A DNA stretch of 64,000 nt, taken from the NCBI GenBank assembly GCA_030867685.1, contig JAQOWU010000003.1, positions 62,001 to 126,000 of the forward strand, given 5' to 3'. A program made the translations under genes and the position numbers. Below the pieces are notes generated by a model. That model searched no databases. It saw only the letters and a program-made list of their open reading frames with translations, and was not told the DNA's origin. This DNA comes from Wickerhamiella versatilis. Its lineage: Eukaryota. This document shows positions 5,868-58,156 of the stretch, piece by piece (position 1 is the stretch's first letter; each line of letters starts with the position of its first letter).

Positions 5868-7427
5868 TCAGGGGAGGCTTATTTCATCTGATAGCTGCTC
5901 CTTCTCAGCAAGTTCGTGCTCGCGTCTATGATGCCTAGGTAAAGTAATCCAGAGAACTAATCCAGTTACAGAAGCAAGCGATGAAACCCCAATCGAAAAA
6001 TACATTGCTCCACGCCAAGCTCTTAGATCCGGATCAGGATGGTTCTGCTGTAGGGTGAGCTGATGGGAGACGGTACCGGCCATTCCCAGGAATATAGAAA
6101 CACCGTAATTTAATGCAGTGGAGACTAGAGAACCAGCAAGACCTTGTAAATGTGGAGGTAATGTGTCGCTCATGATTATAGATGCACCAGGAAAAGACCA
6201 TTCCATGCCAAAGACTGCAATAAGCCATAGTCCAAATGTTGAACGCCAATATGTTTCATGGACAGGACAAGTGGCCAGAATTATGTCCCCAGCCAGGAAA
6301 CACAGCATGCTCCCCAAGAAAACATGGCGCACGTTTTGCTTGTGTTTCATTAACAAACCACAGGTGATGGATGCCACCATACCCATCACAATCGCAGGAC
6401 AATTGGCCGCACCCGCAGCCACGGGTGTATAATGCCGGAAATTTAGGAGGAAGAGGAAAAATTGATATGTCTTTATCCCGAAAGAGCCCCAGCCGAGAAA
6501 CGTACAAGCCAGTGTGAGTAGAAGCACGCCATTGTCGAGTATCTCGCGTCCGAGTAACGGAGCTCTTGCGAACTTCAGCTCATACACCAAAAAAATGGGT
6601 ATTAGAAGGACCCCTATTATCAGCAAAACGATAATATATGGACTATTCCACCCCACTACCGGTGCTTGATTCCATGCAAAATTAAATAACACAAGCCCCC
6701 CCACGCCCAAAACCGAGCCGATCCAATCAACTTCATTATACCTATGAGGCTCAATATGCGGTATAGATACGAGCGAGAGCAGCATACCTACAAAACACAG
6801 AATAGAATATGAGTAAAAAGCCCAATCCCACCTCGGTGTTTCTGTGCCAATAATGCCGGCAAACAGCGTGCCCAGGCAGCCCCCTAAGGGCGCACAAAGT
6901 CCAATAAGAGCGAATACCATGTTCTTCCTGAGGGTGCCGGGCTTATATATACGACCAACGGCGCCCAGTATGTTGGGTAAAATAAAGGCCAGTCCGCAGC
7001 CTTGGAAAGTTCTGCAGCAAACGAAGAAGTTGGAATTTACATAGTAGCTGAAACCACATAGTAAAGACCACACTAATGTCCAGGCATAGCCTCCTAGGAT
7101 TGCAATTTTCAATCCGTATTTATCGCCAATCGAGCCGCTAGGAAGAATGAGCGTACCCAACCCCAATCCAACACTTGCGACATACCATGTGGCCGCGTCG
7201 GAAGACACATCGAAGTCACTCTGCATGATTCGCAGGATAGACATCACATTTGTGGTTGCACTCAATGCTAATGTCTGGCCCATCATTGCAGATGTAATGA
7301 ACGCATACTCTAAAAAGGGATTCTTCGCAAAGTAGCGTGGATCGGTAAACCTCTGCTCTTGGATTGATTCAGAAACCTGCTTCACATCCTCCTTCTCCTC
7401 GAAACCTGATTCTGCACCTGTATCCAT
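5868..7427 (-). CDS. MFS drug:H+ antiporter, DHA2 family (ATR1-like)
   Basis: About 14 hydrophobic segments; ATR1-family motifs 'GTLILPSGSIGDKYG', 'FNFAWNQAPVVGW..PY', 'GMEWSFP', 'QGLAGSLV'. Confidence 0.88.
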   Translation of the reverse strand: MDTGAESGFEEKEDVKQVSESIQEQRFTDPRYFAKNPFLEYAFITSAMMGQTLALSATTNVMSILRIMQSDFDVSSDAATWYVASVGLGLGTLILPSGSIGDKYGLKIAILGGYAWTLVWSLLCGFSYYVNSNFFVCCRTFQGCGLAFILPNILGAVGRIYKPGTLRKNMVFALIGLCAPLGGCLGTLFAGIIGTETPRWDWAFYSYSILCFVGMLLSLVSIPHIEPHRYNEVDWIGSVLGVGGLVLFNFAWNQAPVVGWNSPYIIVLLIIGVLLIPIFLVYELKFARAPLLGREILDNGVLLLTLACTFLGWGSFGIKTYQFFLFLLNFRHYTPVAAGAANCPAIVMGMVASITCGLLMKHKQNVRHVFLGSMLCFLAGDIILATCPVHETYWRSTFGLWLIAVFGMEWSFPGASIIMSDTLPPHLQGLAGSLVSTALNYGVSIFLGMAGTVSHQLTLQQNHPDPDLRAWRGAMYFSIGVSSLASVTGLVLWITLPRHHRREHELAEKEQLSDEISLP

Positions 7428-36161: not shown

Positions 36162-36803
36162 TTAGATGCGGTCAAACAGGCGTTTTACACTACCTTTGAT
36201 ACCAGTTGGCATGGAGGCTCCAAAATCCGCAGCGAGTTTATTGCCCACAATTTTAGCGGTTTGGTAGGCTGCCTGGCCCTGAGGGTCCTCGGTGACTTGA
36301 GCAAGAGCCACATTGGCCTTACTGATAGCATGCTTGGCATGTACAGGGTAGCGTTGTTTTCCCCCATTGCCATACTTCTCAACAAGAACTTGCGCATCAT
36401 CTGTTGCCTTTGCGATGTTGAAGTTCTTGGCAGCAGAACGAACGTACTGGGCGTAATTTGTGTATCCAGGCTTCTTTGCAGCACCTTCGTACATCTGATG
36501 TGCCTGGTTGGCAAGAGACAGCATTTGTGATGGGTCCATTGTAGGACCATTGTTACCTACATGGCTAATAGCTCCCTCAACAATTGCTGTGGCCTGCGGC
36601 TGTTTCAATATTTGCTCGACTGCGTAGGATGCTTGAGAACTGGCTACAGACTCAGGTACACCGACATGCTTGTAGCGCATAGCATAATTTACCATAGCTT
36701 TTGAGGCCACATCCATGTAGTATGGGCGAGGCTTGGTGGCCTGTGTGGGTTCAGCTGCAAGAACAGTGGCGGTGAGGGTGAGGAGAAGTTGAACAGATAC
36801 CAT
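36162..36803 (-). CDS. Secreted Ala/Gln-rich hypothetical protein
   Basis: ATG at 36803 gives the signal peptide MVSVQLLLTLTATVLA; predicted helical; no family recognised. Confidence 0.65.
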   Translation of the reverse strand: MVSVQLLLTLTATVLAAEPTQATKPRPYYMDVASKAMVNYAMRYKHVGVPESVASSQASYAVEQILKQPQATAIVEGAISHVGNNGPTMDPSQMLSLANQAHQMYEGAAKKPGYTNYAQYVRSAAKNFNIAKATDDAQVLVEKYGNGGKQRYPVHAKHAISKANVALAQVTEDPQGQAAYQTAKIVGNKLAADFGASMPTGIKGSVKRLFDRI

Positions 36804-37640
36804 TTTTGTTGTGAGATGCATGCTGGAAAAATGTCCTTAAGTACTATTCTGTTCATCTGTTCTTTAATTTTTAAAGTTCTATTGCCGTGTTTCAAAAAGA
36901 AGAGATGCATTAGCGAGGGTTGATGCTAAATTATCACCTTAAACATTCCTAGAGGAATTTTGAATATGCATTTAAAATAGATTTCGATAAATTTTGGCTT
37001 ACACGCAAGGAATAGTTGGTGGCAATGACCAAACGACGTTATCAATAACTCGCTTAGTAGAATGCTAGCTTACTAAGACTAGCCGAATTACCAGTGAATC
37101 ATATTTGCATTTAACTTTTAGCTATTAGCTCATCTTAACTGACAAAAGTCATATTTGAAGTTTAATACAGGAAATTTCTGTAATTGGGCAGGTAGAGTAC
37201 TGACGAAACGCCGAGCCCGAGAAAAAAAATTAGGAAGATTCATGCCTTTTTTCAATTCTATCGGATCAACTCAAAGATGCAAACAAAACTAAGCAGTGAG
37301 TAGAAGTTTAGCTTTAGTATATAGAGTCCAATGGCAATAACCGTGGGGTAGGCAATAAAAAGCATATCCCAGATGATAAATATCCGAGGTCCTATGCTTT
37401 TTTCCCTGAATTTATCAGCACGACAAGACTCGTATTTGTTCGTCTCATACTTTCATGCTTTATAGAAACGAATGGGAAATAACTTGGAGTACTTCTTACC
37501 AAAATAATAATAACTAGTGAAACAAGTTGTAGCGATAAAAGTATGAGGTGATTGCTGTCCACATGTCATCCCACATGATATACCCTGCGACGCAAAGAAA
37601 TGCAGCACGTGGTGCAGCATTTATAAGCTATTGATATAAG

Positions 37641-38717
37641 ATGGAACTACTAAATCATATTATCATGCTGAATCCATTGAAGTTTTTACGTCAACTGTTG
37701 CTAGTAGTAGCAATTGCTAGTGCCTCTGGCGTGAACATCACCTACCAAACGGGGATAAATGATACACTTGTACCAGATGGGCCTCTACCCCCTGCGTCGC
37801 CCCAACAGGATGTCAATAGGTTGATAGAACTTTTTACCAATCTCGGTAGATCCACCGTGTGGAATCTTGTGGATAAGGTAAGATTCGAGGGTGATACCGG
37901 GGAACCTGAAGGCATGGTGAAGATTGGAGACAATAGGTGGTTTGTTAGCTCCAACTACTACACAGAAGCTACAAAGAGCTACGGGAAGAACATAGTGGTC
38001 AATGGAACTGATCGGAGCTCTGGTGCAGGGTTTGGTCAGATCCTGGTGTATACAGATCGCGGCCAACAGATTGCGGCCATCACTTTGACAAACCCAGGAG
38101 ACATCGAATATCACTCTGGTGGAATAGACTATGACGGTACGTATATTTGGGATGCAATTGGACAGTACCGACCAAATTCTACTGCCCACGTGGTAAAAAT
38201 CGATCCTCGAACAGGCAGACAGAATGCTCTTTTGCATTATGAGGATCACTTGGGCACGATTGTTTTTGATCCTTGGACAGATGAAGCAGTTACCTGGAAT
38301 TGGGGTGGACGCAATGCGACGACCTGGTCGTTTAGTGATTTCGGTCAGAAGCAACCGATGAAGAAATACCCTGAATTTTCCCAACCTGACTTTACGGTCA
38401 AGACTCCCAGCTTCCATATCGATTATCAAGACTGTAAATTCATCGGTCACCCAAGAGCATTCGATTTCAGGGGGGTGGCAGCTTGTGCAGGCGTTTCTAA
38501 TAAGTATGGCGGTATTGCCTTAGTTGACACTACATCGCTAGTGCCCTTATATGAGGTCCCCATAAATATGGTTTCCGAAAATAATGTCTCAGTATGTGAG
38601 AATCCATTTCATATATGTGTTGTGAATGACACTTTACGTGTCTACTTCCTACCCGATCAACACAACTCTACATTGTACGTCTACGAACCTGACATAAATA
38701 GTCCCTATGAGTTTTAG
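37641..38717 (+). CDS. Secreted protein, probable DUF6454 family (beta-propeller-like)
   Basis: Signal peptide (start 37641 or 37665); 'RSTVWNLV...EPEGMVKIG', 'YHSGGIDYDG.YIW', 'YRPNS', 'DHLG', 'NWGGR', 'IDYQDCK' recalled as DUF6454 motifs. Confidence 0.65.
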   Translation: MELLNHIIMLNPLKFLRQLLLVVAIASASGVNITYQTGINDTLVPDGPLPPASPQQDVNRLIELFTNLGRSTVWNLVDKVRFEGDTGEPEGMVKIGDNRWFVSSNYYTEATKSYGKNIVVNGTDRSSGAGFGQILVYTDRGQQIAAITLTNPGDIEYHSGGIDYDGTYIWDAIGQYRPNSTAHVVKIDPRTGRQNALLHYEDHLGTIVFDPWTDEAVTWNWGGRNATTWSFSDFGQKQPMKKYPEFSQPDFTVKTPSFHIDYQDCKFIGHPRAFDFRGVAACAGVSNKYGGIALVDTTSLVPLYEVPINMVSENNVSVCENPFHICVVNDTLRVYFLPDQHNSTLYVYEPDINSPYEF

Positions 38718-39194
38718 TTGGCCAAAAAAAGCCTAATATTTTGGAATACTTAAGAATAAAACATGCTTGGGAAGATGGCGTCATCGACACAGATATCAAG
38801 AAGCCGAGGTGGATAGCACGCAGCCCCCCAGGAATTGTACATGTTTCCGATTAAATGATAGAAAATGCTTAGTGATTTTGACCTACCAAAAATTGAATTC
38901 TGTAGAATTGCATGTATGAAGATAGTAGAATATAGCCGCTTTTGGACTACAATCCGAGTTTCTGCAAGGACTGTGCGCTGCCTGCTATGCAAGAACGATG
39001 AGTCATCAGGTATACTTCATTGGTAATCAATCTTGTGTTCGACCAAGTAAAAACCTGCCTCAAGCAATTTAGATTACAGTGATATTCATTCGTTATCAAA
39101 TAGAAAAAATGTTTATTTCAATCATATACCTAAATGGTTTTATGCTCAACTAACACCGATCAATGTACTATCTTGTTGTTGTTTAAGGCCCAAC

Positions 39195-40694
39195 CTAATT
39201 TGTATTGGAAGTAAGGAAATCCGCTGCTGGTAACAATGCTGCATAATAACTTGTTGAGTGGCTACTTAATGGCACTCTCCAATACTTCACATCCGTTCCT
39301 TGGCTTTTGTAAAAACTCACGGTTTTATCAACCTCCGATATGGGCTCCACCTCGTCATTTGTACCGTGATATATGAATACTGGATATCCTTGAGGGGCGC
39401 TATGACCCAAGCTGTTGTTTTGAAGAACTTTAAGGACCTCTGGGTTCAGGAGTCCATCTACTCCACCCTCTAGGTACGTGGAGATATTTTGATTGGCGTA
39501 CTGTGTTAAGTAAGTGGTGCCACACTCATGTTCGACATCATAAAACTCACTTTCTGTTTCTGGACGAAGCTTTTGATGCAAGACATCAGCAATTTCATTG
39601 TATTCTCTCGAAAGTCCCACTATGGCTGCAGGTACATAGCCAAACTCAGATGCTCCATTCGTTACCTCAAACGATGCAGTCAAGTTTACCACAAACCCAC
39701 CAACTGCGGCGGCAGCAATGTTAAGTTCTGGAGCATACGAATCCTTCTGTTCTATTGCCTGGCCTACCCCTAGAGATCCACCAGAGAATCCCCACAAAGC
39801 CACTTTCGGACTGGATGACAACTTTGTAAAATTTCTCATATTGTTTGCTGCTCTTATAGAGTCAAGCGTTCGTCTTCCAGCACTGATACCTGCGCCAAAT
39901 GCTGAATTTGGCCCGACAAAGTCAGCGGCAATCACTGAGAATCCTCGACTCATCATCAGTTCCAGGGCAGGGTCGGCTTGCGTTGTCAGTAGAGTATATG
40001 AGGGATGACAGTTTGCGTATACCTCATCATTTGCTTCGTTGAATACCATAATTCGATCATTAGTTGACTTCTTAGGAACCATTACCAGGGCAACTGTTGC
40101 TTGAGGGTTCCCTGCGTGGTCCTCTGTGCGGTAAAGAACTTGAAACATCTGCGATGCCCAAGTATAGTTTGCACTGAAGACCTCCCTCCAGTCCAATACA
40201 GTTCCTAAATCGTACGAGGAAAGGTCATTCCCAGTGTAGTTGTAAAAAGAGTCATCTGTAGGTAGAGGTGGGAGGTTTCCCTTATTGCCGACCCAAGGAT
40301 CCTCACCAGACGATATCTCCAGCGAAGATGCTGCCTCACAAATAATGTTCGTAACCTCACTTAAATCCCCCATAGATAATTTCTGTAGCTGATGGAGGAT
40401 TTTAATGGTTTTCTCTATGTCTGATGTGGTCGAGTTTACGATGTCACCCAAGGTGGTAGGCAAATTCTGCAAATCATCCTTGAGTGATGGTTTCTTCATA
40501 ACGAGCCATTCAGGAATTTGGGAGAAATCAGTTGATACAACAGTAACCAAGTCACAGGATGGCGATGAAGTCGCTGCAGCAGCCGCTGCAGTAGCACTAG
40601 TCTCTGTACTCACGGCTCTTCTGACATTTGAAATGGCTCGTGCATGTGATCCGCACAATACCGAAAGGGGTATCAAGCAGCTTGAGAGTCTCAT
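39195..40694 (-). CDS. Secretory lipase (LIP / CalA-like family) with an N-terminal extension
   Basis: Signal peptide; 'QVLYRT', 'CHPSY', 'LDSIRA'; nucleophile elbow GFSGG; Asp in 'HGTNDEV'; His in 'SSHS'. Confidence 0.88.
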   Translation of the reverse strand: MRLSSCLIPLSVLCGSHARAISNVRRAVSTETSATAAAAAATSSPSCDLVTVVSTDFSQIPEWLVMKKPSLKDDLQNLPTTLGDIVNSTTSDIEKTIKILHQLQKLSMGDLSEVTNIICEAASSLEISSGEDPWVGNKGNLPPLPTDDSFYNYTGNDLSSYDLGTVLDWREVFSANYTWASQMFQVLYRTEDHAGNPQATVALVMVPKKSTNDRIMVFNEANDEVYANCHPSYTLLTTQADPALELMMSRGFSVIAADFVGPNSAFGAGISAGRRTLDSIRAANNMRNFTKLSSSPKVALWGFSGGSLGVGQAIEQKDSYAPELNIAAAAVGGFVVNLTASFEVTNGASEFGYVPAAIVGLSREYNEIADVLHQKLRPETESEFYDVEHECGTTYLTQYANQNISTYLEGGVDGLLNPEVLKVLQNNSLGHSAPQGYPVFIYHGTNDEVEPISEVDKTVSFYKSQGTDVKYWRVPLSSHSTSYYAALLPAADFLTSNTN

Positions 40695-41270
40695 CTCGGA
40701 CTAGAACCGCAATCTCATCAATCAAGCTGCATTCTGACTTATATAGTAGGTGTGGGCACGGGTTTGTGTCGGCTTGTGTGATGATCATCATCTCCAATAC
40801 CAACGGCTCATCTCACCAGGGAAATATCACGATACACACGTTAAAAAAGATTATCTTTGTGGAAATTATCTTATTTTGCTACCTGAGATTGCCCTAATTT
40901 AACGTGGCACGGTAAGACTGAGACGAAGTGGAGCTGCAATATCGCAGCGATCTTAAACAAGAAGATTTATCAAATTCAAAAGGTTATTCCTGTTTACAGA
41001 ATTCGCTAACTCGTGTTCACAAGGCCTAGCCTGATCTATTGTCATGGTGCGGGCGTATTAAAATTCTCCCGAAATGTATTCTCGGGCTAGGGCTCATGAA
41101 TAAGGGCGGGCCGATGATCATCATTCATCCAGATGAAGAACTCTTTAGGTGCATGTCTCTCCGCGTAGAGGACAACCAATCATGACAAGTGCTATATAGG
41201 TCTATTGAAAAATATGTTGACAAAGGATTTAATTCAGAAAACAGTGGTACCAAATGCAAGATAGCCCTCT

Positions 41271-42182
41271 TCAAGCCAGATCAATAAAATATGTCTCGGC
41301 TGCTTCTTCTGAGGATGATGGTTTCTTATGAAAACCGTTTCGAATGCATAATTGACGTACAGTGTCTAAACCTGGTTGTAAGGTCAAAATTAGCTCCTTA
41401 TATCCTTTTTGCTTAGCAAAGTCATGTGTATGGGTTAAAAGAGCAGTTGCAATTCCATGTCGACGTGCAAACTGCTCCACGTATAAGAGATGGATGCAAG
41501 CCTTACCTTGGCCACCATTGATTATTACCACTGCTCCAACCATTGTGAGTCCAATTTCTGCAACAAAGCATTGCTCACTGATCGGATCGAAATTCCGAAG
41601 AAATGCCGTGGATAGCTCTGACTCAAGCAATTCAAGAGTTTGACTATTTTCGTGGTTGGATGCAAAGGTCTTTGATTGTCTCAATGCTATTGTCCCAACG
41701 TCGCCAGTGCGGAACGGCCGGATCCGAAAATCAAACAGTGCCTTTTGGCTAGTACACCGGCTGAGTATTAATCGCACTTTTGTCAATGCATCTACAAGGT
41801 CTTCTTGTTCCAGTCTGCTCAGATGTGCTATATTGGACATAAAGCTGTATCTCTGCCGCTCATCTCGCTCATTAAAAAACTCACGTCCCTTCGGGGTCAG
41901 TCGAATTACACGCATCCTTGCATCAGTCCCCTCCGTCTCTCGATAAATTAACTCGTGTGCCTCAAGGCGGGAGACCGTACGGCTGACACCACTGCGCTCA
42001 AGGTTTAGTTTTTGTTGGATGCGTAATTGTGAAATAGGCTCATTTATTGCGATTTCAAAAAAAACACGTGAGTCTAAAAATTTCATGTCTCCACCAAAGA
42101 GCTTGGTAGTAATACCATTTGCAAACTCCGTGTAGAACAGATGAAATTCCCTCATCGCTGCCACAACATCCAGCGTTGCCAT
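41271..42182 (-). CDS. Bacterial-type bifunctional MarR winged-helix / GNAT acetyltransferase fusion
   Basis: N-terminal 'VAAMREFHLFYT'; HTH 'LNLERSGVSRTVSRLE'; MarR wing 'DARMRVIRLTPKGR'; GNAT domain 'IRPFRTGD...LYVEQFARRHGIA'. Confidence 0.85.
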   Translation of the reverse strand: MATLDVVAAMREFHLFYTEFANGITTKLFGGDMKFLDSRVFFEIAINEPISQLRIQQKLNLERSGVSRTVSRLEAHELIYRETEGTDARMRVIRLTPKGREFFNERDERQRYSFMSNIAHLSRLEQEDLVDALTKVRLILSRCTSQKALFDFRIRPFRTGDVGTIALRQSKTFASNHENSQTLELLESELSTAFLRNFDPISEQCFVAEIGLTMVGAVVIINGGQGKACIHLLYVEQFARRHGIATALLTHTHDFAKQKGYKELILTLQPGLDTVRQLCIRNGFHKKPSSSEEAAETYFIDLA

Positions 42183-42776
42183 ATGACTACCATATGACTA
42201 ACCAGTAATCTCGATAATAAGCCCCTGTTTTTTTCTCTCACAGCGATAGGGCTGGACAATTTCGCATATATTGATTTACACCTGTATCATCATCTTTGAA
42301 CTCTGGACCGCTCGTCAAATCGTCTTAACGCAAAGCTCTATCAATATATTAAATTGAAATGTAATGTGATATGTGGCTATCTCAGGTCACATAGGAATTT
42401 TGCTATATACAATTATACTTGACTTTCTTGAGGTTTTAAGTATTCCTATCGTCTCGATAATCCTGATCCAAAGAAAGTTAGTCATCAGATGACAACTAGT
42501 TGCAAAAAACAACCAATATATTACTAACCAACCAGTCTCTGTAGCCTAATTCCTATATATATGCGCTGAAAAAGTGGTCAGGACATACAAAAAATTTGTC
42601 GTATTGGTTTGAAATTCAATTTCTGTTCTCCTATATAATAGGGCTCGCAATTGCTGGCTAAAAAGTTATTACAAATTTACTGCTGCATGAGATGACATTC
42701 ATTAGTAAAGAGAAGATCGAAAGTATTTAAAAAACAGTATCACAATGGGCAATGCAGCTTCATATTGAGATTTTAA
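42183..42776. promoter_or_regulatory. Divergent promoter with multiple Yap1/AP-1-type elements
   Basis: TGACTAA 42195-42201, TTAGTCA 42478-42484, TTACTAA 42521-42527, TTACAAA 42669-42675, TTAGTAA 42702-42708. Confidence 0.55.
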
Positions 42777-44393
42777 ATGAACGATGAGGACTCACCAGAG
42801 GAATATACACCCGAAAAGCAGGTAACAAGCTACCCAACAAAGGTTAAGCATGACTGTTTTACCGACCCTCGCTTCTTCGCTGAGCATCCATGGCATGAGT
42901 ATCTGTTTATTTTTTCTGCCTGTCTAGGACAGATCCTCACCTTAGCCGGTGCCGACTATACTCTTTCAATTCTTAGTGTTCTTGAAGAATTTTACCAGTC
43001 TCCAGCTACCGAGAGAGGCTGGTATATGTCGAGTTTCGCGTTGACTTGCGGAACGTTTATTCTTGCTAGCGGTAGGCTTGGGGATGTTTATGGTCCGAAA
43101 CCTGTTATATTAGTTGGGCATGTTATCACCTTCATATGGGCGATTCTTGGTGGGGTCGCTTACTGGGTTCGCAATGAGACTTTTTTCATTTGTTGCAGAG
43201 CATTTCAAGGTGCTGGAGTTGCCCTGATTCTTCCAAACGTTCTTGGTGCGGCTGGACGAGTTTACAAGGCAGGGACGCTCCGTAAGCACTTGATATTTGG
43301 CTTGATAGGGTGGTGTGCCCCAGTTGGTGGAATTCTTGCACCATTTTTCGCAGGTTTAATTGCAGTGAAGACCAATTACTGGAACTGGATATGCTGGTCG
43401 TTTGCAATAGCTACATTTGTGGGGTTCGTGTTTGTTTGGATAAGTTTCCCCTATTTCCCACCGAAGCACAAAGAGATATCAGTGGACTGGATTGGGTGCG
43501 GATTAGGAATATCTGGAATGCTTTTATTGAATTTTGTGTGGAATCAGGCTCCAAATGCGGGCAGTGGTTGGGCTAATCCTTACATCATTGTTCTTCTCGT
43601 GGTTAGCATCCTCCTCCTGGGTATCTTTGTGTGGTATGAACTTCACTATCCCTCTAATCCACTCATACCCAAAGCAGTGTTGGCAAACTATCGAATAATG
43701 TGCGTGCTAGTTTGCCTATTTCTTTGTTGGGGTTCGTTTGGTATTCTTATTTATCACTATTACATTTTCAATGTTTGGTTGAGAGGTTACAGTCCGCTTG
43801 GAGTAGGTGCTGCGGCAATACCAGCAGTATGCTTTGGCCTTCTTGCTGCAATGAGCTGTCCATTTGCTATTCGCCTTATTCCTATAGAGATTGTGATGGT
43901 GTTTAGCATGACGGCTTTCCTCGGAGGGATGATAATGTTATCTGTCTTGGAACCCGAGCAGGGATATTGGCATCTCACATTCGCCATGCCAACCATGATG
44001 GCATTTGGGATGGATTGGAGTTTTCCTGCGTCATCGATCCTTTTATCTGACGAACTGCCACATGAAATTCAAGGGATGGCAGGGTCGCTGATAATGACAA
44101 TGATTAATTATGGTTTATCGTTTTTTGTGGGGATTTCGGGTACAATCGAGAGTCAAGTTGGTCGTCATAATAATAACGACTTACTTGGCGAGATTAGGGC
44201 TTGTGCTTACTTTTCCATTGGGCTGGCGGGTGCTTCAACGCTTCTCGCTATAATATTGGGTATATATCATCATTTCCACAGTTCTCATAGAGAAAATGCT
44301 GATATGGAAGTAGGATTCGAAAATGAAGATATTGATGATGGCATTCAAGAGCTGCCTAGTCGTAGTGTTAGAAGCTTTTCTCAGGCTCAATAA
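42777..44393 (+). CDS. MFS drug:H+ antiporter, DHA2 family (ATR1-like; paralogue of 5868-7427)
   Basis: 'FTDPRFF', 'GTFILASGRLGDVYG', 'NFVWNQAP', 'GMDWSFP', 'QGMAGSL'. Confidence 0.9.
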   Translation: MNDEDSPEEYTPEKQVTSYPTKVKHDCFTDPRFFAEHPWHEYLFIFSACLGQILTLAGADYTLSILSVLEEFYQSPATERGWYMSSFALTCGTFILASGRLGDVYGPKPVILVGHVITFIWAILGGVAYWVRNETFFICCRAFQGAGVALILPNVLGAAGRVYKAGTLRKHLIFGLIGWCAPVGGILAPFFAGLIAVKTNYWNWICWSFAIATFVGFVFVWISFPYFPPKHKEISVDWIGCGLGISGMLLLNFVWNQAPNAGSGWANPYIIVLLVVSILLLGIFVWYELHYPSNPLIPKAVLANYRIMCVLVCLFLCWGSFGILIYHYYIFNVWLRGYSPLGVGAAAIPAVCFGLLAAMSCPFAIRLIPIEIVMVFSMTAFLGGMIMLSVLEPEQGYWHLTFAMPTMMAFGMDWSFPASSILLSDELPHEIQGMAGSLIMTMINYGLSFFVGISGTIESQVGRHNNNDLLGEIRACAYFSIGLAGASTLLAIILGIYHHFHSSHRENADMEVGFENEDIDDGIQELPSRSVRSFSQAQ

Positions 44394-44614
44394 CATCGTC
44401 TCATTCGCGTGGCCAAAAAGTACTGTCAAGGATTATATATAGAATATGAGTTATACTGTAACCGAATTGAGGTATCTAATTATCATGTCTACCGATACGC
44501 TAGTAAGTGAATGTAAATTAAAACTCGTATAGCGCTACCTTGCATTGTTTCAGAAAGCGTATAAATATGAAGAAGTAATACTCATTGACAGTTTTGCTCT
44601 GTCTGCATTGAGAG

Positions 44615-46339
44615 CTATGTTTTCATAGCATATGGCGATCTAAGCCGCAGAGAATAGCCGAATTTATAAAAAAGAAACGGAAAAGGAAGTGCTATCACAC
44701 TCAGACAGCCAATTAGTGTTCCTGCCCACTGAATACCCAGGTTTTCAAACATTTGCGTGGCAAATAGTGGAAATGCTGCTGCCATCCCAGCTCGGAGGAA
44801 CGCATTGGCGGCATTAGCTGAAGCGGCAAAACTAATGTACACATCAGTGATATAGTTAATAGCACCCAAGAATATCTGGAAAATACCATATTGGACAAAT
44901 GATGCCCCGATACAAGGCACTATCCAGTGAACCTGTTCCGGATAGGCGCCAGACCAGCATAGCCAGAAAATACCAATGGGAAATGAGATCGCACCCGCCA
45001 TCATAACAATGAGCCGCTGCTCTGGTAAGTAGTCAGTTTGATATTTCTTCACAAGCCGGGAAAACCTTGGTTCGAAAAATAATTTATTTGATAATCCTGC
45101 CACAAATGTTCCGGACAATAATCCCACGTAGGGAAGGAATTTAACGCCCTTGTGAAACCCACGTCCTGCATTTTCGTAGCCAGTGAAAATAATTGGGAAT
45201 GCCTCGAGACACATATACTGAATGCCATATACGTAGCCAACATAAATGGAGAGAATGAGGAGCACAGGTTCCGTAACCAGCATCTTCACTGGTCTCACAA
45301 TATTATTTTCACAGACCTCCCTGAGACTGAACGAGACATCTTCATGATCTGCATGTATTCCCCAGATCCCAGTTCGTTCCCGTAGTTCCTCTGCCCTCTC
45401 AACGAGCAGGATGGGACGATATGTTTCCTTCGCAGCGAGCACGAACAACACTGCTGTAGCACATGCAGGGATAGCTATAATATACTGAGTCCAGCGCCAT
45501 CCAAGATAGCTATATGCTATGAATCCTCCGAGAATAGGACTTGCCAATGGACCCGTAACAACGGCTACCGAATATATCGACATGATGTTCCCGCGAGTCT
45601 CCGCTGTAAATTCATCGGAAATCATAGCCGGAAGAATTGCGATAGCTCCTGCTCCAAATGATCCACCAAAAAAGCGGGAGAGCATCTGTGTTTGTACGTT
45701 TGGAGCCGATGCAGCCGCAAAACTGCTACAAATAAAGGCAATTTGACAAATTACATATGGCGGTATCCGGCCATAGACTTCAGAGAGAGGCCCCCAGATT
45801 ACTGGGCCAACAGCAAAACCGAGAATAAAAAGACTCACACCCAGCGCTGCAGGCGTTACTCCGAGATGGAACTCCTCCTGGATCATAGGCATCGCAGGAC
45901 CATAAATACTTGACATAAATGACACCATCAAGTTTGGTAACAGATAAATCATTAGTTGTAGAGATTTCTTTCGGAGTCTCCAGTTATAGGGAATGCATGG
46001 ATCATCCGGACCTTCGAATTCAACTGTGTATAGCTCCCTAGGTGGTAAAGGTGGAGGTAACTGTCTTTCGAAGCCTATGTCCGGGAGTCTCGAGGAATAT
46101 CTTCGTTTGCCTCTACGGCTTATCTCCCGAGAGATTTCCCTGTCAGTAGTTGCAGCTATACTGTTGATCGAGTTATTCGTTCTAGTTCTTCCTGCTGGAC
46201 TGGATTCATCTAGCCCCACAGTATCATCGTATATTTCATTAGGGGTTTCCATATCATCTCCACTAGAAGGAATGCTTTTCAAATCCCCTCCATAGCTGTG
46301 CTGATCTGCTCTGCCGTTGGACCCTTCCTCTTTTTTCAT
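44615..46339 (-). CDS. MFS DHA1 antiporter (TPO/FLR1/MDR1-like)
   Basis: 'VEFEGPDDP..PYNW', 'WGPLSEVYGR', 'ETY.PILL', 'EPVL', 'PEQRL', 'FPLFA.QMF..LG..WA'. Confidence 0.92.
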   Translation of the reverse strand: MKKEEGSNGRADQHSYGGDLKSIPSSGDDMETPNEIYDDTVGLDESSPAGRTRTNNSINSIAATTDREISREISRRGKRRYSSRLPDIGFERQLPPPLPPRELYTVEFEGPDDPCIPYNWRLRKKSLQLMIYLLPNLMVSFMSSIYGPAMPMIQEEFHLGVTPAALGVSLFILGFAVGPVIWGPLSEVYGRIPPYVICQIAFICSSFAAASAPNVQTQMLSRFFGGSFGAGAIAILPAMISDEFTAETRGNIMSIYSVAVVTGPLASPILGGFIAYSYLGWRWTQYIIAIPACATAVLFVLAAKETYRPILLVERAEELRERTGIWGIHADHEDVSFSLREVCENNIVRPVKMLVTEPVLLILSIYVGYVYGIQYMCLEAFPIIFTGYENAGRGFHKGVKFLPYVGLLSGTFVAGLSNKLFFEPRFSRLVKKYQTDYLPEQRLIVMMAGAISFPIGIFWLCWSGAYPEQVHWIVPCIGASFVQYGIFQIFLGAINYITDVYISFAASANAANAFLRAGMAAAFPLFATQMFENLGIQWAGTLIGCLSVIALPFPFLFYKFGYSLRLRSPYAMKT

Positions 46340-46680
46340 CCGATGAAAAAGGTTAGGGTTTGCAGATCCCGATATTTCAACCGAGTATTTACTTCCTTCA
46401 CCGCTGGAATTGTTTTGGATTATATAGGTATACTATCTATAAACAGAAATTATAGACTGCCATAACATAACTGTTAACTGTTACTTACCATGTGTTTCAT
46501 GGCCCTATTAATATCATATCCCCACTTCATCTCTAACTGCTAATTTCTAATTACATACGCATAGCAATGATATATTGACTCCTTCGCAATTATCAAGCAT
46601 GGAACCGAGAATACTAAAAAAATCAATATAACCTAGTTTCTGGTAATAAGTAATATATCTATCTCGTCATTCGTTCATCT

Positions 46681-47175
46681 CTAGGCCGCGGACCTCCAAC
46701 TCTTTCCTGTTCCTGGAGTTCTACCTACAACAATTTGGTAGGTGTCAGTTCCTAATGTGAAAAGACTAAAAGCGAAGGAAATCCAGAGGAATGATTCCAT
46801 TGCATGCCATCGGCCACAATCCGACTGCCAATCTTCACCAAACCCCCACTTTTCCCAGTTAGCCGCATAGTTACTACCACAGCGACTGTTCCAATCTCCA
46901 ATTGCAGCACCTCCTGCTACTAGGAAGATCATACTTATGATGTCCATACCAAGTACACAGCACTTGCCTACAGTTGGAACCTTGTTACTGAGAAGCGACA
47001 TACAGGTGGTAACTATTAGTAGAGCTGTCGCAATGACGCTTGCAGCCAACACATAATTCACCCGGGTTTCATCCCATCCGTTGGCGCGAAGATCTGCTGA
47101 AATACCGAGCACAATTACTGCAAAAGCAAACGTACAAAAGTGTAAACACGAGTCACAAATCTTTCCAGCCTCCAT
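46681..47175 (-). CDS. Four-TM MARVEL-domain protein (Nce102-like)
   Basis: 164 aa with four hydrophobic segments; 'FAVIVLGISA', 'D..SMIFLVAGG', paired loop cysteines, 'FLWISF'. Confidence 0.7.
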   Translation of the reverse strand: MEAGKICDSCLHFCTFAFAVIVLGISADLRANGWDETRVNYVLAASVIATALLIVTTCMSLLSNKVPTVGKCCVLGMDIISMIFLVAGGAAIGDWNSRCGSNYAANWEKWGFGEDWQSDCGRWHAMESFLWISFAFSLFTLGTDTYQIVVGRTPGTGKSWRSAA

Positions 47176-49186
47176 TCGAGTCGAAAAAAAAACTATTCTG
47201 TATGGTTTCCCTAAAGTCCCAACATGATGCTTTTTATATATATAATTTTGCTTTCCTCACGGGAAAGGGATGTCGGCAGACTCGCATCCCATTAATTAAC
47301 TTACATAACAATGTCCGACGTAATGTGGGGAATACGAAGTTTTTTCTGCGACAGACACTTGCAATTGCCGTGATTTAATTTTAAATTTGACTGCTCCTAC
47401 ATATTGTATAAGACCGTACTGTTCCAGTCCATATTCATGTGTTTAATGACAGGGGCTTTTTGGATGATCTCAGGACGAGAAGCAAACTATGTCATAACCC
47501 CAGCCCTGTCGGTTGGCAACGGGTTTTCATTTTTGCAATGAATGAAGTGGCGCCGGCCTAAATAGCTAGACAAATAGTTGTGCGATCTCCATTGGGAATA
47601 TAAGTGGGCAACTTGAAATTAATATAGTGCTGCAGGGCTTGTTATCTCATTACCGACCGATAGGTACCATCGTATTTCAATATATTCGTAATATTTTAAG
47701 GAAGATCGCAGATCTTCTAGAAGACAAAGTCGAATTGTTTTCCGAGATAAGTTACCTAGATTATGCGATTGCTATAATCTGCACGTGATGCCATTCTAGG
47801 TCTATTTCCACCCTGCTGCGTCTTGGTCTTCCCAACCGATCCTGGGTTTGTGCTGAACGGGACATCTTGGGCGCAGAAGACTCACTTAACCGTACAATGA
47901 GCTATCCTTATTCACATCATCAATTTTAGACACAACTTTTGTACTTGGTGGAGGAATGTGTTGCGGGACGTGAATGTTTTAAACAGCCTTGCACTGAATT
48001 TCACGTCTTTCTATTATAACATGCTAATATATGGGTGCTGGTGTCACATAACGAAGCCATATGATACTATCTGGTATCAAAAGGGAACATAGATGGTTCT
48101 GAACTAGGGACATTAAAACTCAATGGATAACCAACGTCGCTTAATTCAACCATCTGTCATGTAGATGTGGCATTTGGTGGATTAAAAAATTATGACATCA
48201 GGTCTTCCAGTATCAAGTCACTTATAATGGTTACTATGATTGTACTGAGGGGTTTTCAAAAGGCATAATATGGGAAGGCTAACCTTCATCTGGGTGAGTT
48301 TTCACGGAATCGGATTATTAGTTAAACCTGTCACACATCCGTACCGAGTACCGAAGATGATAATGTTCAGTACTTGGACAAAGAATGATGTAAAACCAGG
48401 AGGATTTGGGTGGCGATACAGTTGAGTCATGGGGAACTCCAAAATGCCTGACCATCATTGGCCGTGACATAAGGATGCCGCCTGGCCGCATCAGTCCTCA
48501 TGAAGAGCAGTATAGCGCGAAATGTAGCGTCAGATCCACTTGAACTACCTGGAGTAAGTAGCGAGTATCCAATCCCCACCCTGTGGGCACCTTACATATT
48601 ATTATTGTAGCAAAATTTGCTGATGGGCAGCTGGATATTCGCAGCTTGGTATATCAATTACGGATGAAAGGTTGGGTGCCCTCAAGTAATTCATCTCAGT
48701 CCATGCATGATGCTTTGATGTCTAGAATACAAAAATGCGTAACTTTTTCCACTTTATGAGATTATATCTTGCTGCATCTCGTAATAGCCTGCATGAAATG
48801 TCCCAGTTAGTGATTACGACTTGTCTGCAGGAGGTTCGTTACCTCCCCCCATCGCGACTTGTTCATTTATAATGCGACGCTTCACAAATTTGGGGCGCAG
48901 TACTAGCCACGATATTTCTTTCATCGCCATAAGACTACAGATTAATATTTAATAATAAAAATAAATCAAAATCGCTCGCGGACTAAAAGCCGCTTGAAAT
49001 CGACGACTACGACAGCAATCACGTGACCTTGGTGGGGGAGGGGTTGAGAATAATGGTCCCCGACCCCACATTTATCACCGTTAAGCCGCAGCTTCCTCGG
49101 TTGGTGTTTCACCGAGAGGTCCATAAAGCTGGTAATTGTAAAAAAAAAGAAAAAAGGGACTATTTCTGAGAATTTTCTTGCTTGAT

Positions 49187-50821
49187 TCAAGACAAACCAT
49201 CTCTGAGCTCGATGTAACGATAATATAAAGTCATGGTCTTGCGTCTCCAAAACTTTCCTGAGAATATTAATGGGATTGTAAGACAGCAGAGCAAGAATTG
49301 AACCGCTGCGCAGGAAATATACGTGTTCATTTGACCTATCTTGAACCAAGGCTCAATCACGAAACACAGGATAAAGGATATCAAGGTGTATATCATGGAC
49401 ACTCCAATTACAGATTCCAGCGACATCTCAGGATAGCAATCCACGAGATATGCCATTGGGATGTCTGTTGTAATTCCAAAGCTTGCCCCGACAAATGCGA
49501 GACCTAAGTAAGGCGCGGGCCATGACCATTGATACTCTGTACCTGCTCCAAACAGTAATAGGCCTAAGGGACCAAGAATAAACGAAGGTGCCATGCACCA
49601 CAGACGTGATTCTGCCTCCTGGATTCCGTGATTGCGTTTGGCGGCATAAGCCACGAGCCAGTCGGTGGCATATATTGAGTAAAAGCATCCGACGACAGCA
49701 CCAATGAAAACCGGAACCATCATTATTCCCAGCGCCACACTGCCATAGTTCCATGGTGAGAGAATCCATACCTCCTCCTCAGTGGTCATGTAGAAACTGA
49801 GCCATGATATGCCCCACCCCCAATGAAGACCAGTATACCACGTTGCAGGAAACAAAAATACTCGAAACTGCAAGAAGAGGCGCTGAACATACTGCTTGAA
49901 GCCGTACCCTTTTATCGCTCTCGATTTTTTGACGATGGCTAGTCGCTTCCAGTAGGGTTTGATCACTTCAGCGTCGTAGATTGTGGTCCTTGTGGGTATT
50001 TGTTGAGTGGTATTTTCGAATGCAACAGGCTCCTTTTTCTCTGAGGACGCCTCCACATTGTTCTCAAGAATGGTTTCTACAGTGTGTTGCGAGAAGGCTG
50101 CTCGGTCAAACGACGTCTCCTCCAGCAGGAAAAAAAACACTACCAACGTAACACCCTCAAGAATCAGACCTAACCATCCAATCCATTGCCAGCCAAGATC
50201 ATTGACTATGTATCCTCCAATCAACGGCCCAATATACGAGCCCGCTGCAAGAGATATGACATAAAAAGCAATGAAGTCTGCAAGCTCGTGCTGATAGTAT
50301 ATTTGGGAAATGGAGAGCTGCGCCAGACCTTCAATTGCGCTTGTAGACATCCCAATAAAGAGCTGGGAGCCAATTATGTCGCCTGTAGTCTTGTAATTTG
50401 CCATCCAAGCGGACCCAATAATTCCAAAACATGTGCACAGGATATATAGCAGTCTCACGCCCCAGATATGAGGTATCGGTCCCAGCAGTGCTGATCCTGC
50501 CCATCCAATGCCAATGAATAATATAGCCGTTGCAATATTAACGTCTGTATATGTCCAGGTCGGATGATCAGCAAGGAACCCGTTGCTTTGGATACTAAGG
50601 ATGTTAGCCATTGCTCCCATGAAGCCTTTGTTCCAGAGTATGAGTGACAGTTGGATATGCTTCTTCCATCGCGGCATTTTCAAGGGATCATTTGGTGATT
50701 TTGTGGGCTGGGGGTGAAGGACTATATCACCGTCCCGTTCAAGCCCCTCCTCATCGATATCGTGGGAATTAAACATAACAATTGTTCCTGGAATCTCCTC
50801 GGCCCCACCAGAATCCTTCAT
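49187..50821 (-). CDS. HOL1: MFS permease, HOL1 family
   Basis: 'IPGT', 'LHPQPTKSPNDPL', 'SFYMTTEE...PWNY', 'GIQEAESRLW', 'AYLVDCYP' match my recollection of yeast Hol1. Confidence 0.8.
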   Translation of the reverse strand: MKDSGGAEEIPGTIVMFNSHDIDEEGLERDGDIVLHPQPTKSPNDPLKMPRWKKHIQLSLILWNKGFMGAMANILSIQSNGFLADHPTWTYTDVNIATAILFIGIGWAGSALLGPIPHIWGVRLLYILCTCFGIIGSAWMANYKTTGDIIGSQLFIGMSTSAIEGLAQLSISQIYYQHELADFIAFYVISLAAGSYIGPLIGGYIVNDLGWQWIGWLGLILEGVTLVVFFFLLEETSFDRAAFSQHTVETILENNVEASSEKKEPVAFENTTQQIPTRTTIYDAEVIKPYWKRLAIVKKSRAIKGYGFKQYVQRLFLQFRVFLFPATWYTGLHWGWGISWLSFYMTTEEEVWILSPWNYGSVALGIMMVPVFIGAVVGCFYSIYATDWLVAYAAKRNHGIQEAESRLWCMAPSFILGPLGLLLFGAGTEYQWSWPAPYLGLAFVGASFGITTDIPMAYLVDCYPEMSLESVIGVSMIYTLISFILCFVIEPWFKIGQMNTYISCAAVQFLLCCLTIPLIFSGKFWRRKTMTLYYRYIELRDGLS

Positions 50822-58138: not shown

Positions 58139-58156
58139 CTACCTGAGATTGGTTGG
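58139..58156 (-). repeat. Dispersed 18-bp intergenic motif, copy CCAACCAATCTCAGGTAG
   Basis: The + strand reads CTACCTGAGATTGGTTGG; one mismatch to the copy at 33164. Confidence 0.7.

Follow-up and report, generated by a model that had tools for sequence, protein, structure and literature searches.

A MarR–GNAT fusion gene of bacterial ancestry, divergent to an ATR1-family efflux pump gene in the yeast Wickerhamiella versatilis

Introduction

Stand-alone regulators of the MarR family that are divergent to efflux genes are familiar from bacteria, as in the case of E. coli MarR, EmrR/MprA and SlyA. Members of this family regulate transcription from palindromic or pseudopalindromic operators, in most cases under the influence of a ligand. 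A MarR-type domain is also found in a large family of bacterial fusion proteins (400 representatives at E ≤ 1e-10) that carry the NCBI name [quoted passage not shown]. These proteins are approximately 300–320 aa long and combine MarR_2 and Acetyltransf_1 in that order; a literature search returned no published functional study of the family.

The bacterial genes kept by yeasts are mostly stand-alone enzymes and transporters. In the Wickerhamiella/Starmerella clade, xenologues described by Goncalves et al. 2018 (PMC5897096) are bacterial genes that have been integrated, ameliorated and passed on to several related yeasts, and the supplement of that paper tabulates a bacterial helix-turn-helix regulator (LysR family, Gammaproteobacteria) for C. 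versatilis and W. domercqiae. Sequence similarity ties the window only weakly to that clade: its malic enzyme matches W. sorbophila best among named entries, at 58%, with several other yeasts at 56%. The MarR entry IPR000835 appears among the fungal DBD families, where its occurrence is sporadic, mostly 0 or 1 per species (Shelest 2017, PMC5415576). This census consists of counts only, without architecture, phylogeny, synteny or function. In the light of the census (PMC5415576), the initial annotation of this locus goes too far in calling MarR regulators prokaryotic. A precedent for the fungal partner in this locus is ATR1 of S. cerevisiae, which is regulated by Yap1 according to PMC8450079.

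Here we describe a gene from W. versatilis that resembles the bacterial fusions in domain order (25–38% identity), in its wing motif and acetyl-CoA motif A, and in its position within the family tree, and that differs from them in lying on a eukaryotic chromosome and in following the codon usage of its host. With the stand-alone MarR regulators it shares the winged helix-turn-helix fold, the dimer helices, the DxR...LTxxG wing and the pump-divergent layout. In contrast to those systems, the neighbouring pump gene belongs to the eukaryotic ATR1 family and has a promoter of eukaryotic type, no operator was found in the region scanned (42150–42810), a GNAT half is added, and DNA binding in yeast is hypothetical. 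Throughout, "the window" refers to the whole 64,000-nt stretch of DNA that was analysed.

Results

The fusion gene (41271..42182, minus strand) is an open reading frame from ATG to stop, with 303 codons plus the stop codon and no need for an intron. Residues 7–285 of its product are collinear with bacterial MarR–GNAT fusions in alignments, and the AF2 model of the protein has a pLDDT of 91.1 and a pTM of 0.82. Two of the conserved leucines, L95 and L302, are encoded by CTG. The Pfam-supported fusion, the full 303-aa frame and the supported nesting in the bacterial tree described below uphold the proposal that this is an intact gene of bacterial origin.

The MarR-type half (aa 1–145; 41748..42182, minus strand) is predicted by the AF2 model to adopt the six-helix MarR fold (a1 6–29, a2 35–47, a3 52–59, a4 63–75, a5 97–117, a6 123–144) with a beta-wing formed by strands 79–83 and 91–95. 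Pfam recognises MarR_2 at aa 32–89 (E 1.7e-10, 41.3 bits, cut-off 27) and MarR at aa 44–89 (E 1.3e-6, 28.6 bits, cut-off 24.6), MarR_2 is recognised in all 14 aligned relatives, and the top PDB sequence matches of this half are stand-alone MarR proteins, with 3f3x at 1.2e-6. The MarR wing consensus is D-x-R-x5-(L/I)-T-x2-G. The corresponding motif of the yeast protein, D87-x-R89-x5-L95-T-x2-G99 (41886..41924, minus strand), agrees with it throughout, T96 included.

The GNAT half (aa 153–303; 41274..41726, minus strand) matches Acetyltransf_1 at aa 201–271 (E 8.7e-10, 39.3 bits, cut-off 20.7) as well as Acetyltransf_7 and Acetyltransf_10. Its GNAT fold is apparent from VIA-align, in which 3d8p_B scores Z 19.1 (rmsd 2.2, 148 aligned) and 49 more GNAT entries at least Z 15.5; E. 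coli RimI scores Z 17.9, and the Foldseek match is 2r7h_B at 7.5e-9. The acetyl-CoA motif A of GNATs has the consensus (Q/R)-x-x-G-x-(G/A), which is found here as R240-R-H-G-I-A245 (41448..41465, minus strand). None of the NCBIfam models attains its own cut-off against the fusion protein, and no solved structure with MarR fused to GNAT was found by PDB sequence search, Foldseek or VIA-align.

The fusion protein is predicted to form a homodimer, with an ipSAE of 0.74 against 0.00 for the best control; among proteins of solved structure, 20 of 30 pairs and 1 of 23 single chains attained the ipSAE mark applied. Contacts agree by at least 86% between runs, partner pLDDT is at least 81, and the predicted interface consists of a1 and a6 (residues 4–25 and 120–144), as in MarR dimers, although the prediction may echo solved MarR dimers that the model has learnt.

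Conservation was examined in an alignment of 72 rows, comprising 65 bacterial rows and others that include the homologue P0014 and four yeast-type rows. At least 90% of the 72 rows share the residues D87, R89, L95, G99, R240 and G243. In the MarR half, R39, S67, R68, D87, R89, L95 and G99 are retained in all four yeast-type rows. In motif A, R240 and G243 are 98% conserved among the bacterial rows and present in every yeast-type row, while position 245 is A in the window protein and G in the remaining rows. The motifs quoted in the initial annotation, D87-A-R89 ... L95-T-P-K-G99, R240-R-H-G-I-A245 and "RQLCIRNGF" with C279, are all there.

What sets the yeast proteins apart from the bacterial fusions is a group of residues present in 82–100% of bacterial rows and replaced in every yeast-type row that covers them: R15, R231, T268, A275 and Y279 (at least 91% of bacterial rows) and W206 and W267 (82–88%). 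R15, invariant in bacteria, has given way to L or Q in the yeast proteins. In the GNAT half, the changes at sites conserved in bacteria include Y279C, R231H, W206F, W267T and T268L, and the yeast protein has lost six residues relative to the bacterial ones in its C-terminal "HxxFGxxxxGExW" hairpin. A Tyr on helix a4 is the general acid in many, though not all, GNATs. At the equivalent position 279 (codon 41346..41348, minus strand), 91% of the 65 bacterial rows have Y, as does P0014, and the four yeast-type rows all have C; since this Tyr is not a universal GNAT feature, C279 concerns the mechanism and not the assignment to the fold, and it could alter or abolish catalysis. Judged from the alignment, the GNAT site was probably remodelled after transfer and thereafter fixed in the yeast lineages, and the yeast clade is best regarded as a derived offshoot, atypical of the bacterial fusion family.

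The wing is more basic in yeasts, with 5 K+R per yeast row versus 3.58 ± 1.2 over the 65 bacterial rows. The ratio of MarR to GNAT identity is 0.81–0.93 for yeast pairs versus 0.79 ± 0.13 for 1079 bacterial pairs of similar divergence, which suggests that over long times both halves have been conserved about as in bacteria, the MarR half as well as the GNAT half.

The phylogeny called for by the initial annotation places the yeast-type sequences inside the Alphaproteobacteria. In a careful tree (46 rows), the five yeast-type sequences form a clade (100/100) that is joined with P0014 at 100/96. Both nest in a group at 99/97 together with Acetobacteraceae, Caulobacteraceae and a Vulcanimicrobiota MAG, and this group sits inside a Sphingomonadales-rich alphaproteobacterial clade at 100/100. 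A quick tree of 99 rows has the same topology. All 80 loci retained in a prokaryote genome scan are bacterial (best 35–38% identity), and the 10 matches listed out of 30 in an Atlas search are each 92–100% bacterial. A search of 5.8 billion proteins gave 13 matches, among which only four yeast-type clusters were found besides the window's own, the other matches being unassigned to taxa; the gene thus appears narrowly distributed in the recipient group. Because the yeast-type clade is nested with support in an alphaproteobacterial clade, a bacterial origin is shown. Together with the host flanks on independent assemblies, the host-like composition and the narrow distribution, the supported nesting identifies a horizontally acquired bacterial gene, and the sequences show an ancient bacterium-to-yeast transfer from an alphaproteobacterial donor, for which the nearest named groups are Acetobacteraceae, Caulobacteraceae and Sphingomonadales.

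The gene is embedded among fungal genes, the flanks encoding Tos1, a Cet1-type triphosphatase, a LIP lipase and a MARVEL protein. The secretory lipase of the fungal LIP family lies downstream of the fusion gene (39195..40694, minus strand; PF03583 LIP, 1e-52). A single 68,066-nt contig from the isolate run X10 is collinear with 34001–47998 and bridges both junctions, and the 97%-identical homologue P0001 is located on a 1.35-Mb contig. A contig of run X1 covers 41315–46400 with zero differences; X1 is a possible source sample and is hence non-independent. The GC3 of the fusion gene is 0.391, compared with 0.445 ± 0.045 for 25 other ORFs and 0.82–0.93 for bacterial relatives. Homologues at 60, 53 and 45% identity all have open frames. 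Since the transfer, the base composition of the gene has come to match that of its host, and at least four diverged lineages have kept it intact.

Among close relatives, three shared strain differences within the ORF (41661, 41733 and 41976) are all at third codon positions, and 8 amino-acid differences separate the 97%-identical variants. An in-frame 15-nt deletion at 42060 in X10 removes codons 37–41, including that of the near-invariant R39. Variable sites in close variants number 1 of 133 in the GNAT core versus 10 of 145 in the MarR half (Fisher p 0.011). On these counts the GNAT core appears to be the most constrained part in recent variants, with recent amino-acid variants clustering in the MarR half; this clustering and the loss of codons 37–41 count against a role for the MarR half.

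The pump gene (42777..44393, plus strand) encodes a 538-aa MFS protein of the ATR1 family (DHA2 type; Pfam MFS_1 1e-25, TRI12 3.9e-8). Among named proteins, its best matches (40–41% identity) come from Saccharomycetaceae, under the names ATR1, aminotriazole resistance protein or borate transporter. The divergent ATR1-like neighbour reported earlier is thus confirmed, on the opposite strand and 594 nt away. A second ATR1-family DHA2 gene is present in the window (5868..7427, minus strand; TIGR00711 EmrB/DHA2, 4.4e-31). By blastp, the S. cerevisiae protein P0192, which is of ATR1-like length, is 43% identical to the product of this second gene versus 40% to the pump at 42777, and the pump adjoining the fusion gene is therefore regarded as a clade-specific ATR1-family paralogue, a point of difference from S. 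cerevisiae ATR1 itself. Convergent with the pump is a further MFS transporter gene (44615..46339, minus strand; MFS_1 2e-39, Sugar_tr 8e-14).

Judging by equal contig sizes alone, the fusion gene also seems to be linked to a pump gene in two other species: P0002 and P0170, the latter a pump of 80% identity, are each assigned to 2 contigs, the longest of 29,200 nt, and P0003 and the ATR1-family protein P0184 are each assigned to 2 contigs, the longest of 4,269 nt. For P0163 and P0169 the size is 13,789 nt in both cases. The neighbour in the P0003 species is 50% identical to the window's other ATR1-family gene versus 43% to the pump. In bacteria, an MFS gene adjoins the fusion in 1 of 12 loci, and a conserved pump partner is absent.

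The divergent promoter region between the two genes (42183..42776) is 594 nt long with 34% G+C. It contains Yap1/AP-1-type words at 42195, 42478, 42521, 42669 and 42702, and a repeat search revealed a tandem CCATATGACTA x2 at 42179–42200. The Yap1 sites given in PMC6545440 include TGACTAA, TTAGTCA and TTACTAA. Five YRE-type words are present, four of them strict, which is the maximum over all 594-nt segments (22 strict words in 64 kb); the count was made post hoc, and so AT-rich a stretch favours such words. Across the window, TGACTAA is unenriched, with 10 found versus 9.42 expected. The Yap1-type words of the promoter resemble those described for ATR1, although the sites for a Yap1 orthologue are putative here. 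Neither a strong palindrome nor a clear MarR-type operator was found in 42150–42810, where the best inverted repeats are 79–85% complementary. By eye, a 6-1-6 palindrome is visible at approximately 42481–42493 (chance expectation about 0.15).

Discussion

The initial annotation had left two alternatives, a detoxifying acetyltransferase co-regulated with the pump and a prokaryotic ligand sensor still binding DNA in a eukaryote. The former fits best, given the constraint on the GNAT core, the Yap1/AP-1 words and the lack of a clear MarR operator in the region scanned. The product is most likely a detoxifying enzyme and not a bacterial-style regulator. In its full form, that of a dimeric acetyltransferase co-expressed with the ATR1-family pump under host control as an "acetylate and export" pair after an alphaproteobacterial transfer, we give this explanation somewhat better than an even chance. 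A gene of the "bifunctional HTH regulator/GNAT acetyltransferase" kind passed from an alphaproteobacterium into the ancestor of a small budding-yeast group. Its product would form a homodimer through the MarR-type helices a1 and a6, with acyl transfer by the GNAT half as the selected activity. The acceptor site would have been rebuilt after transfer (Y279C, R231H, W206F, W267T/T268L and the C-terminal hairpin shortened by six residues) and then fixed. The 594-nt bidirectional promoter, with its four to five Yap1/AP-1-type sites, would be common to both genes, and because of these sites a host bZIP stress regulator is proposed to switch both on, so that the two could act as an "acetylate and export" detoxification pair. 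The MarR half would then be mainly a scaffold for dimerisation or ligand holding, yet its conservation and its extra-basic wing are not obviously needed by a pure scaffold.

If this plain reading is true, the gene is another domesticated xenologue, of moderate interest, in a lineage known for many. Its novelty is likewise moderate, fungal MarR-type domains and bacterial regulators in yeasts having already been catalogued. It nevertheless offers a handle on the bacterial MarR–GNAT fusion family, and the fixed Tyr-to-Cys change is a ready mutagenesis target. A complete bacterial DNA-binding module kept for long beside a drug pump also provides a case in which one-component regulator function in chromatin can be set against re-use as a scaffold.

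It is improbable, in our estimation, that the MarR half still regulates transcription in the yeast nucleus by binding DNA in response to a ligand, so as to control the pump gene, the fusion gene itself or both, while the GNAT half serves as sensor or modifier. The confidently modelled helices and wing, the seven residues retained in all four yeast-type rows, a wing with more K+R than the bacterial mean, the canonical a1/a6 dimer (ipSAE well above the control), long-term conservation at the bacterial level and a layout that recalls bacterial MarR loci, with its seeming recurrence in two more species, are all consistent with such a role. However, no strong palindrome was found between 42150 and 42810, and with a fungal pump, and bacterial relatives that lack a conserved pump partner, any operator would have had to evolve afresh. 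The missing R39 in X10, the recent variants gathered in the MarR half and the replacement of R15 also argue against it. The boldest version, a whole bacterial one-component regulator in a eukaryote, whose MarR dimer would bind the shared promoter or another site while the remodelled GNAT half would detect a small molecule or acetylate it, thereby placing a prokaryotic ligand-to-DNA switch over a fungal efflux gene, is compatible with the retained residues of the wing and recognition helix but quite improbable. Alternatively, the winged helix could take the GNAT half to DNA, chromatin or RNA as a tethered protein or RNA acetyltransferase, the pump being a coincidental neighbour. The co-conservation of the halves as a unit in bacteria and yeasts and the basic wing would suit this role, as would near folds among N-terminal and lysine acetyltransferases (RimI; HP0935, Z 18.2; Ard1/Naa10-type, Z 16.6–17.8), but Z is similar across all kinds of GNAT, including the small-molecule enzymes BAR/PAT (Z 17.9) and AAC(6') (Z 16.1), the NCBIfam models all stay below cut-off, and the apparent recurrence of pump linkage speaks against coincidence. 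We consider this role, too, improbable.

A chimeric assembly, or contamination of a metagenome-derived yeast contig by bacterial DNA, could be suspected because the runs that best cover the stretch are metagenomic and may be the window's source, and the X1 contigs listed leave 41153–41315 unbridged. This has next to no chance of being correct and is already contradicted, as the isolate contig of 68 kb spans the full 14 kb and both junctions, composition and GC3 are host-like rather than those of bacterial relatives, no bacterium exceeds 38% identity, and related copies are found in several yeast-type assemblies. It is very unlikely that the gene is instead a passenger, weakly transcribed or untranscribed, without selected function and slowly decaying. 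Such decay could account for the 5-codon deletion in X10 and the 8 amino-acid differences between 97%-identical variants, and none of the listed holder runs is on record as RNA. On the other hand, frames are open down to 45% identity, yeast-specific substitutions are fixed in all four lineages, the GNAT core is nearly invariant in close variants, the conserved motif residues are kept, and the three shared strain differences all fall at third codon positions. Depth in the run X20, guessed to be RNA, is patchy (Tos1 120, MARVEL 102, lipase and DUF6454 approximately 0), and a 785-nt contig of this run across 41430–42215, at a depth of 6.6, provides a hint of expression of the fusion gene.

The fusion gene and its pump neighbour

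The initial annotation had described a full-length MarR-GNAT fusion gene transcribed divergently from an ATR1-like efflux pump, and this description is borne out. An intron-free open reading frame at 41271–42182 (minus strand) encodes a protein of 303 aa, in which Pfam recognizes MarR_2 (aa 32–89, E = 1.7e-10) and Acetyltransf_1 (aa 201–271, 8.7e-10) together with MarR, Acetyltransf_7 and Acetyltransf_10; all five exceed their curated cut-offs. The motifs quoted earlier are present as D87-x-R89...L95-T-x2-G99, R240-R-H-G-I-A245 and C279 in the context RQLCIRNGF. On the opposite strand, 594 nt away, lies the pump gene (42777–44393), which matches Pfam MFS_1/TRI12 and whose best named relatives, at 40–41% identity, bear the names ATR1, aminotriazole resistance protein or borate transporter. 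The MarR-GNAT gene is intact and divergent to an ATR1-family pump. Eighteen NCBIfam families match the fusion protein at E ≤ 0.01, none close to its own cut-off, and therefore no substrate can be named.

The 64 kb hold six MFS transporter genes (5868–7427, 8046–9746, 15782–17446, 42777–44393, 44615–46339 and 49187–50821), two of which are ATR1-family paralogues 41% identical to one another. Accessory and transport genes abound in this region.

Phylogenetic placement

Among 5.8 billion proteins, a word-indexed search picked out 13 matches, four of them yeast-type (97, 60, 53 and 45% identity) and the remainder bacterial MarR-GNAT fusions at 25–29% identity. In an exhaustive HMMER search, 1506 of 1.84 billion representatives matched at E ≤ 1e-3 and 400 at E ≤ 1e-10. 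Prokaryotes were scanned at one genome per species with a pattern built from a five-row alignment, yielding 520 relatives among the 590 pattern matches listed (at least 590 exist). The best 80 of these relatives, which number at least 520, are all bacterial, with Sphingomonadales leading at 35–38% identity; further close bacterial relatives may exist beyond the matches listed.

A quick tree of 99 rows, which omits the frameshifted L001, two proteins with frameshifted tails (P0017 and P0024), representatives shorter than 285 aa and 26 lower-ranked loci, agrees in topology with a careful tree of 46 rows. The five yeast-type rows form one clade (100/100), to which the protein P0014 is sister (100/96). 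Together they group with two Acetobacteraceae, one Caulobacteraceae and one Vulcanimicrobiota MAG (99/97), and this group is nested in a Sphingomonadales-rich clade (100/100). The yeast-type rows lie inside a bacterial clade in both trees, so a bacterial origin of the fusion gene is upheld on phylogenetic grounds. The donor was probably alphaproteobacterial; its exact identity is uncertain because the yeast clade has a long stem (1.16 changes per column).

P0014 is a protein of 314 aa with an AT-rich amino-acid make-up, found in four variants on contigs of up to 102 kb. It is 47–50% identical to bacterial members of the family and 38% identical to the yeast ones, and its top identity against the 80 best scan loci is 47%. 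In the order to which the Acetobacteraceae MAG belongs, 57 of 301 sampled genomes contain a match, the best at 50%. P0014 may be another copy in a eukaryote or may come from an AT-rich bacterium yet to be sampled. Some of the genomes from this order (G086, G171, G204, G036 and others) have matches to a single half, either the MarR-like one, in open frames of about 386 aa, or the GNAT one, in frames of 170–240 aa; bacteria therefore also have split or re-fused versions of the family.

Integration in the yeast chromosome

The runs that best match this stretch are metagenomes, possibly the window's own source. Sequencing run X10 from an isolate, which is organism-labelled and comprises about 10 million letters, was counted as independent support. 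A single X10 contig of 68,066 nt is collinear with 34001–47998 at about 96.5% identity and runs unbroken over this interval. A contig from run X1 covers 41315–46400 without differences, X1 being a possible source sample and hence not independent. The window is yeast-like in composition (39–49% G+C), its ORFs are without introns, and the genes around the fusion gene are fungal, encoding a Tos1 cell-wall protein, a Cet1-type mRNA triphosphatase, a LIP secretory lipase, a MARVEL protein and a malic enzyme, the last with its best named match in Wickerhamiella sorbophila (58%) and matches of 56% in several other yeasts. GC3 of the fusion ORF is 0.391, compared with 0.445 ± 0.045 for 25 other ORFs of the window and 0.82–0.93 for the closest bacterial genes. 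The 97%-identical protein sits on a contig of 1.35 Mb. An assembly chimera or contamination was rejected on the X10 contig, the fungal neighbours, the host-like GC3 and this 97% copy, and is very unlikely; the fusion gene is integrated in a yeast chromosome. CTG accounts for 7 of its 34 leucine codons, including those of the conserved L95 and L302, and therefore the standard code applies.

X10 also differs structurally from the window, with about 464 extra letters at 41249, immediately downstream of the fusion gene stop, and 76 different letters in place of a 75-nt stretch near 37323–37399. A DUF6454 protein (37641–38717, plus strand, 8.2e-40) is encoded two genes away from the fusion gene.

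Retention and divergence of the two halves

The frame is open in yeast lineages down to 45% identity, and by this comparison the fusion gene is old and retained in several of them. Dividing MarR-half identity by GNAT-half identity gives 0.81–0.93 for the six yeast pairs versus 0.79 ± 0.13 for 1079 similarly diverged bacterial pairs, which indicates that long-term decay of the MarR half is no faster in yeasts than in bacteria. The MarR half has 36 bacterial-conserved sites, 14 of them intact in all yeast rows and 9 altered in all; the corresponding figures for the GNAT half are 22 and 12 of 44. R39, S67, R68, D87, R89, L95 and G99 are among the residues retained, and the wing carries five K + R residues per yeast row versus 3.58 ± 1.2 in bacteria.

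Recent variation gives a different picture from this long-term conservation. When the window sequence is compared with three closely related variants, 10 of 145 sites vary in the MarR half versus 1 of 133 in the GNAT core (Fisher p = 0.011; p = 0.19 when the MarR half is set against the whole remainder of the protein). X10 has an in-frame 15-nt deletion at 42060 that removes codons 37–41, R39 included, and is found in neither of the runs X4 and X20. Three strain differences fall inside the fusion ORF, all at third codon positions, among the 40 of 556 differences listed.

Several sites conserved in 82–100% of bacterial rows carry yeast-wide replacements (bacterial state in brackets): H14 (N), L/Q15 (R), F/L206 (W), H231 (R), T267-L268 (W-T), V/I275 (A) and C279 (Y). 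The yeast C-terminal hairpin is six residues shorter than the bacterial one. P0014 retains the bacterial states at most sites replaced in yeasts. This pattern, a burst of change and then fixation, points to an altered acceptor or chemistry more than to decay.

Predicted structure

AlphaFold2, supplied with 72 aligned sequences, gave a model (pLDDT 91.1, pTM 0.82) with a complete MarR fold (helices a1–a6 and the wing) joined to a GNAT fold. The GNAT half resembles many solved GNATs, among them 3d8p (Z 19.1), RimI (17.9), BAR (17.9) and Naa-type enzymes (16–17.8), no single substrate class being prominent among these structural matches. No solved fused MarR-GNAT structure was found by PDB sequence search, Foldseek or VIA-align: the first gave 15 matches, all stand-alone MarR proteins, the Foldseek matches listed are GNATs only, and the 50 matches listed from a wide VIA-align search all fall within residues 136–303. 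Prediction as a homodimer gave an ipSAE of 0.74 (best of three controls 0.00), with at least 86% contact agreement between runs and pLDDT of at least 81. This passes a mark that 20 of 30 proteins with solved paired structures reach, against 1 of 23 whose solved structures are single chains. The predicted contacts involve a1 and a6, the helices that also pair in MarR dimers, and parts of the GNAT half; the prediction may stem from solved MarR dimers that the model has memorized.

Shared promoter, pump linkage and expression

The initial annotation had offered two readings of the gene pair: a detoxifying acetyltransferase co-regulated with the pump, or a prokaryotic ligand sensor still binding DNA in a eukaryote. 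The 594-nt intergenic stretch contains weak palindromes only and no convincing MarR-type operator. A persisting role on DNA for the MarR half is considered improbable. The same stretch contains the Yap1/AP-1-type words TGACTAA (42195), TTAGTCA (42478), TTACTAA (42521), TTACAAA (42669) and TTAGTAA (42702). Four of them are strict, more than in any other 594-nt stretch of the window, where such words total 22 in 64 kb and three are reached at only one other place; the words were counted post hoc, once the sequence had been inspected, and in an AT-rich stretch. These words appear as Yap1 sites in PMC6545440, and S. cerevisiae ATR1 is described in PMC8450079 as a Yap1-regulated gene carrying three of these elements. 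The most likely reading would be an acetyltransferase that works as a dimer and is expressed together with the pump, both controlled by a stress regulator of the host.

Linkage to a pump is uncommon at the bacterial loci. Pfam was run on 45 of 79 crude ORFs at 12 loci (fusion genes, overlapping ORFs and distal ORFs omitted), and 23 of the 45 had no Pfam family. Neighbours vary, with GGDEF-EAL genes in three Sphingobium loci and tgt, queA or both in three loci; no partner gene is conserved across the 12 loci, and an MFS gene lies beside the fusion gene at one of them. The pump linkage therefore arose in yeasts. Within yeasts it seems to recur, judging by equal contig sizes rather than viewed sequence: the homologue P0002 and an 80%-identical pump share a contig number and size (2; 29,200), as do the homologue P0003 and an ATR1-family protein (2; 4,269). 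The latter is nearer to the window gene 5868–7427 than to the pump (50% vs 43%).

Among the runs listed as matching 39000–45000, none is on record as RNA. Run X20, RNA by guess, covers 14 kb gene by gene, with Tos1 at about 120, MARVEL at about 102 and the lipase and DUF6454 genes at about 0; its 785-nt contig over 41430–42215 (depth 6.6) gives a hint that the fusion gene is transcribed.

At 42179–42200 the 11-nt unit CCATATGACTA is repeated perfectly in tandem, overlapping the fusion gene start codon and enclosing one of the TGACTAA words. Elsewhere, a 2.6-kb region (57636–60226), in which no ORF reaches 90 aa and no tandem repeat was found, has TGACTAA three times on the same strand, at positions 59230, 59408 and 59764 (intervals of 178 and 356).

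Related reports and other possible bacterial-type genes

In the literature searched, no paper on MarR-GNAT fusions was found; among the matches opened for MarR with GNAT, there was just the acetylation of the MarR-family protein SlyA. MarR-type domains are sporadic in a census of fungal transcription factors (PMC5415576). Many bacterial genes are known from the Wickerhamiella/Starmerella clade (PMC5897096, a 2018 eLife study). The supplement to that paper tabulates a LysR regulator of bacterial origin, and no MarR or GNAT entry was found in it; the tables of the 2018 Cell budding-yeast survey may list the gene.

Other genes of the window may also be bacterial in type. An FAD oxidoreductase (31900–33072, plus strand) matches the NCBIfam equivalog of SolA, the bacterial N-methyl-L-tryptophan oxidase, with 385 bits (cut-off 257) and may be another gene of bacterial origin. 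A MoaF-domain protein (11303–12109, minus strand) adjoins a class-III aminotransferase (12541–13884, plus strand) and an APH-type kinase (14436–15461, plus strand), a group that looks like further bacterial-type genes. The aminotransferase and kinase match opposite ends of the long bacterial model PRK06148 (425.7 bits, positions 576–1009, and 196.1 bits, positions 8–309, respectively).
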